Shown here: positions 16,613 to 16,977 of the stretch, one piece after another | Position numbering within the stretch: position 1 is the first letter of the stretch | Layout of the letters: each line of letters opens with the position of its first letter | From: Escherichia coli | Lineage (GTDB): Bacteria > Pseudomonadota > Gammaproteobacteria > Enterobacterales > Enterobacteriaceae | Direction: 5' to 3' (one strand) | NCBI RefSeq assembly: GCF_044647545.1 | Contig: NZ_CP172818.1 | Length of the DNA stretch: 64,000 bases | The notes under the pieces: generated by a model | Told to the model about the DNA's origin: nothing | The model's input: only the letters and a program-made list of their open reading frames with translations | The model's database searches: none | Position numbers and translations under genes: made by a program

Positions 16613-16624
16613 CCATCAACGATT

Positions 16625-16646
16625 AAACTGCGCTTCGGCGCAGTTT
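16625..16646 (+). terminator. Hairpin downstream of ycgI
   Basis: aaactgcgc-ttcg-gcgcagttt. Confidence 0.45.
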
Positions 16647-16680
16647 CCGTTTACAGGATGTTAAAAGAGAAAATTCTGCG

Positions 16681-16712
16681 GCAAAAAAAGCCCGCCAGTT
16701 ACGGCGGGAAAC
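16681..16712 (-). terminator. Rho-independent terminator on minus strand
   Basis: Minus strand reads ggtttcccgccgtaactggcgggc followed by ttttttt. Confidence 0.6.
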
Positions 16713-16731
16713 CTCATCCTATGGGAGAACA

Positions 16732-16941
16732 ATGAATAATGAAATTGCGGGGTTATCATCTCCCAGCATACCCATACTAACAATAAGGTTATTTACTCAG
16801 CCAGGTATAAACAATTTGTTCTGTGTGGGGGGAACGGCATTAAGGTGTAAAGGGGGGGAAGCAATGAGTAGCATCAGCAAGAATACTCGCCGCTCTTATC
16901 AAACGTGGATGAGGGGGATGAAAAACTCAAGGCAGAGATGA
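16732..16941 (+). CDS. Hypothetical 69-aa ORF between ycgI and minE
   Basis: ATG preceded by gggaga SD-like motif; no recognisable domain; lies between two minus-strand terminators. Confidence 0.2.
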   Translation: MNNEIAGLSSPSIPILTIRLFTQPGINNLFCVGGTALRCKGGEAMSSISKNTRRSYQTWMRGMKNSRQR

Positions 16942-16951
16942 CTCTGCCTTG
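16921..16951 (-). terminator. minCDE operon terminator
   Basis: Minus strand hairpin caaggcagag-tcatct-ctgccttg followed by agttttt, 27 nt past minE stop. Confidence 0.65.
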
Positions 16952-16977
16952 AAGATAAATGCGCTTTTACAGCGGGC

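Follow-up and report, generated by a model that had tools for sequence, protein, structure and literature searches.

A probable layered transcription termination zone between minE and ycgI of Escherichia coli, enclosing an ultra-conserved core

The unannotated gap of 365 bp that separates the well-studied minCDE operon of Escherichia coli from the ycgI autotransporter remnant is probably a layered termination zone acting on the minus strand, in which an intrinsic terminator (T1), a Rho-dependent termination region and a back-up intrinsic terminator (T2) would follow one another. This ycgI-minE intergenic region occupies positions 16613-16977 of the window, that is, the entire stretch of 64,000 nucleotides that was analysed, and extends from the stop codon of the ycgI pseudogene to that of minE; its equivalent in strain MG1655 is 1223908-1224278. 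Explaining the gap as a three-layer termination zone is mainly a matter of annotation tidying, as it removes a spurious open reading frame (ORF) of 69 amino acids and re-reads a set of G tracts as the C-rich Rho-loading stretch that lies behind a published, uninterpreted ‘orphan’ Rho site. The zone is already documented in part in a published supplementary table (PMC7815308).

The interval lies between two convergent genes. On one side, minE (16978-17244, minus strand) is the last gene of minCDE, and on the other lies the ycgI remnant (16169-16612, plus strand), annotated as a partial autotransporter pseudogene and coding for the C-terminal beta-barrel of a YpjA/EhaD-like protein; A10 and RIVM_C039629 are strains in which an intact autotransporter gene of about 1,120 amino acids, also YpjA/EhaD-like, occupies the same position beside minE. 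The segment 16500-17100 is 100% identical to that of strain FDAARGOS_497 and has matches in 5,424 of 5,426 complete E. coli genomes, and no annotation lies under 16613-16977 in MG1655 (NC_000913.3), W3110, FDAARGOS_497 or the listed records among 5,320 genomes. The interval is single-copy, no paralogues being present in E. coli, and a plasmid search returned 13 matches, all of them to non-mobilizable E. coli records, several of which are chromosome-sized. When 80 other species were searched, homologues beside minE were obtained only from E. coli, E. albertii and one E. coli-like Escherichia sp. contig, which ends inside the interval and carries it in part. In Salmonella, Citrobacter and other genera a homologous T1 is followed directly by rnd. 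The genes ymgI, ymgJ and ycgI are missing together with the interval in three Escherichia lineages (the ‘E. coli’ record SCPM-O-B-8794, Escherichia sp. E1V33 and E. whittamii), where another hairpin and about 480 bp separate the minE stop from ymgG; even the ancestral T1 is replaced there.

T1 (16921-16953, minus strand) is the main intrinsic terminator of minCDE. Its stem of 12 pairs runs from 16953 to 16926 and is followed by TTTTT at 16925-16921, with a predicted energy of -19.8 kcal/mol, and T1 displays all the hallmarks of an intrinsic terminator, namely a GC-containing hairpin, a U tract and a 3' end mapped within that tract. The core GGCAGA...TCTGCC is common to the minE terminators of E. 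albertii, Salmonella and Citrobacter. T2 (16683-16708, minus strand) consists of CCCGCCG-TAAC-TGGCGGG followed by a C and seven U, its stem running from 16708 to 16691 and the T7 tract occupying 16689-16683; six of the seven pairs are G-C and the predicted energy is -12.6 kcal/mol. It possesses the hairpin and the U tract of an intrinsic terminator, and no dominant in vivo 3' end is assigned to it in the Term-seq lists considered below. On the opposite strand, T0 (16625-16654, plus strand), composed of the hairpin AAACTGCGC-TTCG-GCGCAGTTT at 16625-16646 and a T-rich tail, is likely the terminator of the ycgI/autotransporter gene. The hairpin is conserved, the lowest part of its stem showing a compensatory replacement of A-T by G-C, and a terminator scan also calls T0 in E. 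albertii. The initial annotation had described two minus-strand terminators about 215 bp apart, G7 and G6 runs between them and a 69-codon plus-strand ORF with an SD-like gggaga, in an interval that it did not recognise as a known gene. All of this stands, T2 starting 213 nt past the T1 tail and the interval being unannotated, and the T0 hairpin has to be added to that list of features.

The same scan called T1 and T2 in the window, in K-12 and in E. albertii, always in the same order and with T0 on the opposite strand. Across 16000-17600 it yielded 3 sites as compared to 1.8 +/- 1.2 in shuffled sequences, and the K-12 copy of the interval contained 4 terminator-like sites as compared to 0.3 +/- 0.6. 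Strains 83972 and IHE3034 of phylogroup B2 carry a C-to-T change at 16695 (plus strand), which creates a C-A mismatch in the minus-strand T2 and reduces its predicted energy from -12.6 to -5.4 kcal/mol; the same change would give a G-U pair if the plus strand were the RNA, and it is accompanied by an eighth U. A further variant around 16761, TCTCCC to TCCCCC, preserves pairing on the minus strand only. Taken together, the two variants as read from these alleles are no consistent pointer to which strand matters, and the predicted weakening of the T2 stem in B2 is hard to reconcile with T2 being under strong selection for termination. A metagenomic copy from E. coli has an unrelated hairpin, AAAGCCCACATCTGTGGGCTTT, in place of the ycgI terminator hairpin about 90 nt upstream of the conserved core described below, which looks like a terminator swap.

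Published 3'-end data from K-12 support the first two layers of this arrangement. Term-seq has been carried out on cells grown in LB to OD 0.4, in LB to OD 2.0 and in M63 glucose (Adams et al. 2021, PMC7815308, supplementary file 1), and in the part of that file considered here the dominant 3' end lies at MG1655 1224224/5(-), corresponding to window positions 16923/4 inside the T1 U tract, and appears three times in the three-condition table. Within the same part of the file, two Term-seq lists hold no other 3' end on either strand from 1218619/1218676 to 1226099, and no dominant 3' end is listed at T2 (1223978-85, minus strand) in any of the three conditions, in lists that hold about 1,000 dominant ends per condition (PMC7815308). 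T2 therefore marks no abundant RNA under those three conditions, a rare end there still being possible. At 1226099(-) itself, upstream of minC, a strong ‘orphan’ Term-seq 3' end is present in two condition lists of that source.

Between the two terminators, DirectRNA-seq of K-12 with and without bicyclomycin (PMC7815308, supplementary file 2) has placed an ‘orphan’ Rho termination region at 1224064(-), equivalent to window position 16769 as its reported centre, a coordinate that derives from 800-nt windows and is thus coarse, and that was obtained in K-12 and not in the window strain. In the rows of that file for this site, the 3'-end reads in the 800 nt upstream and downstream amount to 230/18 in untreated cells and 293/571 with bicyclomycin, with a Rho score of 24.9 and p = 3.6e-67 (PMC7815308). 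More read-through upon inhibition of Rho, as seen in these K-12 data, is the behaviour of a Rho-dependent terminator. It should be considered that horizontally acquired DNA is also spuriously transcribed in the presence of bicyclomycin; the additional reads may have a source other than read-through of T1.

The sequence that precedes this region on the minus strand is unusual in composition. Runs of at least six G or C occur only 11 times in the entire 64 kb, and the stretch contains a G6 (16827-16832), a G7 (16852-16858) and a G5 (16913-16917) on the plus strand, all of which are C tracts in a minus-strand RNA. In the minus-strand RNA of 16880-16821 there are 25 C and 7 G (42% C, 12% G), and in the 154 nt that separate T1 from the conserved block the excess of C over G ranks in the top 3.5% among windows of this length across the 64 kb. 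The C/G ratio is 1.36-1.76 in every lineage examined (K-12-type, B2 and E. albertii alleles), although the sequence itself diverges, and the longest minus-strand ORFs in the stretch amount to 20-27 amino acids with TTG starts. Untranslated RNA that is rich in C and poor in G, placed just before a bicyclomycin-sensitive region, is an established signature of Rho loading, and it is because the composition agrees with this signature and a bicyclomycin-sensitive region is adjacent that 16801-16920 (minus strand) is read as a putative rut region, with the C tracts as the candidate loading site. The stretch 16800-16920 is dimorphic, with at least 95% identity to the window in 735 of 5,321 records and 80-90% identity in 4,575 of 5,321; the window-type allele is thus carried by about 14% of genomes and the K-12-type by about 86%, with hardly anything intermediate. 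In A10 and RIVM_C039629 the window-type allele goes with the intact autotransporter gene of 1,120 amino acids.

According to the layered termination model, T1 ends most minCDE transcripts, which the published Term-seq data demonstrate. Transcription that reads through T1 would yield the RNA of 16920-16801, and since this RNA is C-rich and untranslated, Rho is proposed to load on its C tracts and to terminate transcription near 16769, where the K-12 experiment has demonstrated a Rho-dependent region. The escapees that remain would be stopped at T2, about 45 nt before the T0 of the autotransporter gene, and the combined signals would shield this convergent gene from antisense min transcription. 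We infer this role of T2 from its sequence, from how well it is conserved and from the many 3' ends that arise beyond 16769 under inhibition of Rho, and the bicyclomycin-induced ends would accordingly have to be placed at T2 itself. The model leaves the invariance of the 38-40 nt beside T2 unexplained.

The last point concerns a core of 57 nt (16692-16748), made up, on the minus strand, of the T2 hairpin together with 38-40 nt upstream of T2; read in the plus direction, the core takes in the SD and the ATG of the small ORF and its first five to six codons. It is identical in E. coli and E. albertii, the interval as a whole being only 58% identical, and it is also kept in a second E. albertii haplotype obtained from a metagenome. 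Within E. coli the 80-nt block 16684-16763 shows at least 95% identity in 5,311 of 5,316 records, and 87 nt (16680-16766) are identical in the window and K-12. A second conserved island at 16785-16799, AAGGTTATTTACTCA, is invariant in the E. coli sample and differs by one base in E. albertii. Termination explains a hairpin and a U tract; it does not explain 57 invariant bases or the island at 16785-16799. Searches with Rfam 15 covariance models (E <= 10) gave no match in 16684-16925, matches nearby being at chance level and falling on the T0 and T1 hairpins, and inspection of the interval by eye for sigma-E, sigma-54, sigma-28, Fur, ArgR, IHF and Ter motifs revealed nothing convincing. Exceptions to the conservation are found in individual strains, as CE0032f carries an IS4 inserted within the core at about window position 16715, and EC09 carries an IS1-associated deletion that joins the icd/integrase region to about window position 16860 and removes the core, while a variant present on 53 contigs appears to have lost it through a deletion between 10-bp repeats; judging from these alleles, the core region is dispensable in rare strains.

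The ORF on the plus strand (16732-16941) is preceded by the SD-like GGGAGA at 16723-16728, 3 nt before the ATG, and encodes 69 amino acids in the window strain. In MG1655 a difference of 1 nt in a G tract shortens it to 36 amino acids, which is also the length in 57 of 68 metagenomic copies, followed by 44 amino acids in 5/68 and 69 amino acids in 2/68, with 15, 38, 39 and 49 amino acids represented by one copy each. A search of 5.8 billion proteins returned only 18 sporadic Escherichia/Shigella entries for the ORF product, which beyond about codon 31 use all three reading frames, and no match was obtained to Pfam or NCBIfam families. Synonymous changes account for 31% of 29 single-nucleotide polymorphism (SNP) alleles in the 36-codon form, as compared to a neutral expectation of 26% and to 21-28% in the other five frames, and for 6 of 26 changes between E. 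coli and E. albertii counted by hand, which is neutral. A small-protein gene is expected to conserve its length and frame and to show an excess of synonymous changes, and neither is seen here. The claim of a small plus-strand protein made in the initial annotation thus does not hold for the 69-residue product as a conserved gene, which is ruled out by its length variation, its use of three frames, its neutral SNPs and the lack of a family; the 69-codon ORF is judged to be a strain-specific by-product, indels in the G tracts shifting the frame between strains. Some pipelines nevertheless call it, an example being the automatically called C1358 between ycgI and minE of UTI89, if this is the same ORF. 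Two minus-strand ORFs that run through the core (40 amino acids from a TTG start and 32 amino acids from an internal ATG) were likewise rejected: their frame crosses the T2 hairpin and U tract, so that the mRNA would end before the stop codon, and no usable SD was seen on inspection.

Different functions of the conserved core have to be weighed against the layered termination zone. It might belong to an independent minus-strand small RNA (sRNA) gene of about 90-100 nt, expressed from a weak or regulated promoter near 16785-16800 and ended by T2, in which the conserved body 16766-16709 would base-pair and the seven U of T2 could bind Hfq; this is unlikely, albeit not negligibly so. The conserved block is of sRNA size (87 nt between the window and K-12, 57 nt when E. 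albertii is included) and adjoins a terminator, as expected of a base-pairing sRNA, and T2 has at least seven U as described for Hfq-binding sRNA terminators (PMC5558911). The extended -10-like element TGTTAGTAT at 16792-16784 (minus strand), noticed by eye, contains a TAGnnT hexamer in which T, A and T are unchanged throughout the E. coli sample; however, the element lacks a normally spaced -35 partner and is not retained in E. albertii, and a sigma-70 scan of the minE strand from T1 to T2 returned no site in the window, K-12 or E. albertii. A discrete transcript is equally lacking from the sources considered, with no dominant Term-seq end at T2 in the three conditions, no more than 18 3'-end reads from untreated cells within the 800 nt beyond 16769 and no entry for the core locus among the Hfq-CLASH rows listed. 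Covariation and consensus folding, an analysis that the initial annotation had proposed, gave no support on either strand when run on 37 haplotypes (covariance terms +0.4 and +0.7), and the inverted repeat GGGAGA/TCTCCC of E. coli, which would form a 5' stem, is not kept in E. albertii. Nor was there an Rfam family or a convincing partner, as the best non-self complementarity of the core within the 64-kb window (-34.9) lies inside the range of shuffled controls (-29 to -36). The independent transcription unit put forward in the initial annotation, as a minus-strand sRNA in particular, is hence unsupported: no promoter-like site exists between T1 and T2 in three lineages, the only dominant 3' end listed is that of T1 and the Rho region lies between the terminators. 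Alternatively, read-through of T1 might give rise to a small RNA, the core acting as functional 3' module in an extended minCDE 3' UTR isoform that ends at T2, is seen only when Rho is relieved in the C-rich stretch and is perhaps cut by RNase E; this is distinctly unlikely. A Rho-gated region immediately upstream of the conserved block and the rise of downstream 3'-end reads from 18 to 571 with bicyclomycin (PMC7815308) are in line with it, but these ends are located only to an 800-nt window. The conservation pattern also agrees with it, the UTR being variable upstream and invariant close to the terminator. On the other hand, the stronger T1 of E. albertii, with its U6AU5 tail, leaves little read-through to be expected, and no target emerged from the complementarity search within the 64-kb window. 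A variable UTR with an invariant segment next to the terminator is typical of sRNAs derived from 3' UTRs, such as CpxQ and NarS. We know of no physiological condition that relieves Rho at the minCDE 3' flank. More specifically, it is quite unlikely that the core and T2 constitute an Escherichia-specific regulatory RNA generated by minCDE read-through and made only when Rho is relieved; if true, it would couple either the transcription of the min operon or the activity of Rho to a target in trans or to the autotransporter next to it, and would represent a clean case in which a pair of terminators conceals a regulatory RNA.

On the plus strand, the core might serve as ribosome-binding site and N-terminus of a small protein of about 36-39 amino acids (MNNEIAG...), either alone or together with an antisense RNA that ends at T2, in a geometry resembling that of type I toxin-antitoxin or SymE/SymR-like systems. 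The invariance of the SD, the ATG and the first codons, an ORF that runs uninterrupted for 36 codons in 84% of the copies from E. coli and reaches 39 codons in E. albertii, with 31 codons free of indels, and the position of an opposite-strand terminator just upstream of the SD, as in cis-antisense regulators, all speak for such a protein. It is nevertheless very improbable in view of the near-neutral synonymous fractions and the sporadic database entries given above, and of a natural allele in strain S6 in which the SD is mutated and the frame shifted at codon 6-7. Furthermore, promoter prediction on the plus strand found none for the ORF in the window or K-12, and the peptide MNNEIAGLSSPSISILTIRLFTQPGINILFCAWEQP, which on inspection shows prolines and charged or polar residues throughout and no hydrophobic stretch of about 20 residues, lacks the small hydrophobic membrane helix of a type I toxin. 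Finally, the interval could be a functionless spacer left by rearrangement or decay of the autotransporter locus, its conserved patch being due to chance or to a short recombination tract. Its confinement to E. coli and E. albertii, its absence from other genera and from the remaining Escherichia clades that were sampled, the fast evolution of most of its length and the tolerated IS insertion and deletion would suit a spacer. The initial annotation had set a non-conserved spacer against its own proposal, and this description fits only in part, as the core is ultra-conserved and the rest fast-evolving: an identical run of at least 57 nt at a background of 58% identity occurred in 0 of 20,000 shuffles, the core is retained in two different E. 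albertii haplotypes, and in 5,300 genomes of E. coli the block is near-invariant between dimorphic flanks. On these alignments the core is far more conserved than a spacer would be, and a functionless interval is scarcely probable at all.

The layered termination zone preferred here resembles the tandem or fail-safe terminators known from convergent junctions, with which it shares a hairpin plus U tract at the operon end, an untranslated C-rich stretch with a bicyclomycin-sensitive region and a further intrinsic terminator ahead of the convergent gene. Behind intrinsic terminators, Rho silences read-through and antisense transcription. It differs from these systems in that T2 and its flank are far more conserved than termination needs, and in that the use of T2 is something we infer here. 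With Hfq-dependent or 3'-UTR-derived sRNAs such as CpxQ, NarS and MalH the locus has in common a GC-rich hairpin followed by seven U, a conserved single-stranded segment of about 40 nt directly upstream of it and a variable distal UTR; unlike in those cases, no transcript, promoter, processing site, Hfq association or target was detected here, and the distribution is limited to E. coli and E. albertii. The similarity to SymR/symE, Sib/Ibs and Rdl/Ldr resides in an opposite-strand terminator about 15 nt upstream of the SD and in the overlap being the most conserved part, whereas the ORF considered here shows neither constraint at the protein level nor a toxin-like helix, a promoter is found on neither strand and the locus is single-copy.

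Two further observations concern the surroundings of the interval. In E. albertii (L004, 3382->3355) a sigma-70-like ATGACA-16-TATGAT sequence with 10/12 matches is directed antisense into minE, and it is absent from E. coli. In addition, a direct repeat of 10 bp, TGAATAATGA, occurs at 16437-16446 within ycgI and at 16733-16742 at the start of the small ORF, and a database protein (P0006, 53 contigs) in which ycgI is fused to the small ORF, with T0 and T2 gone, appears to have arisen through deletion of the DNA between both copies of this repeat.
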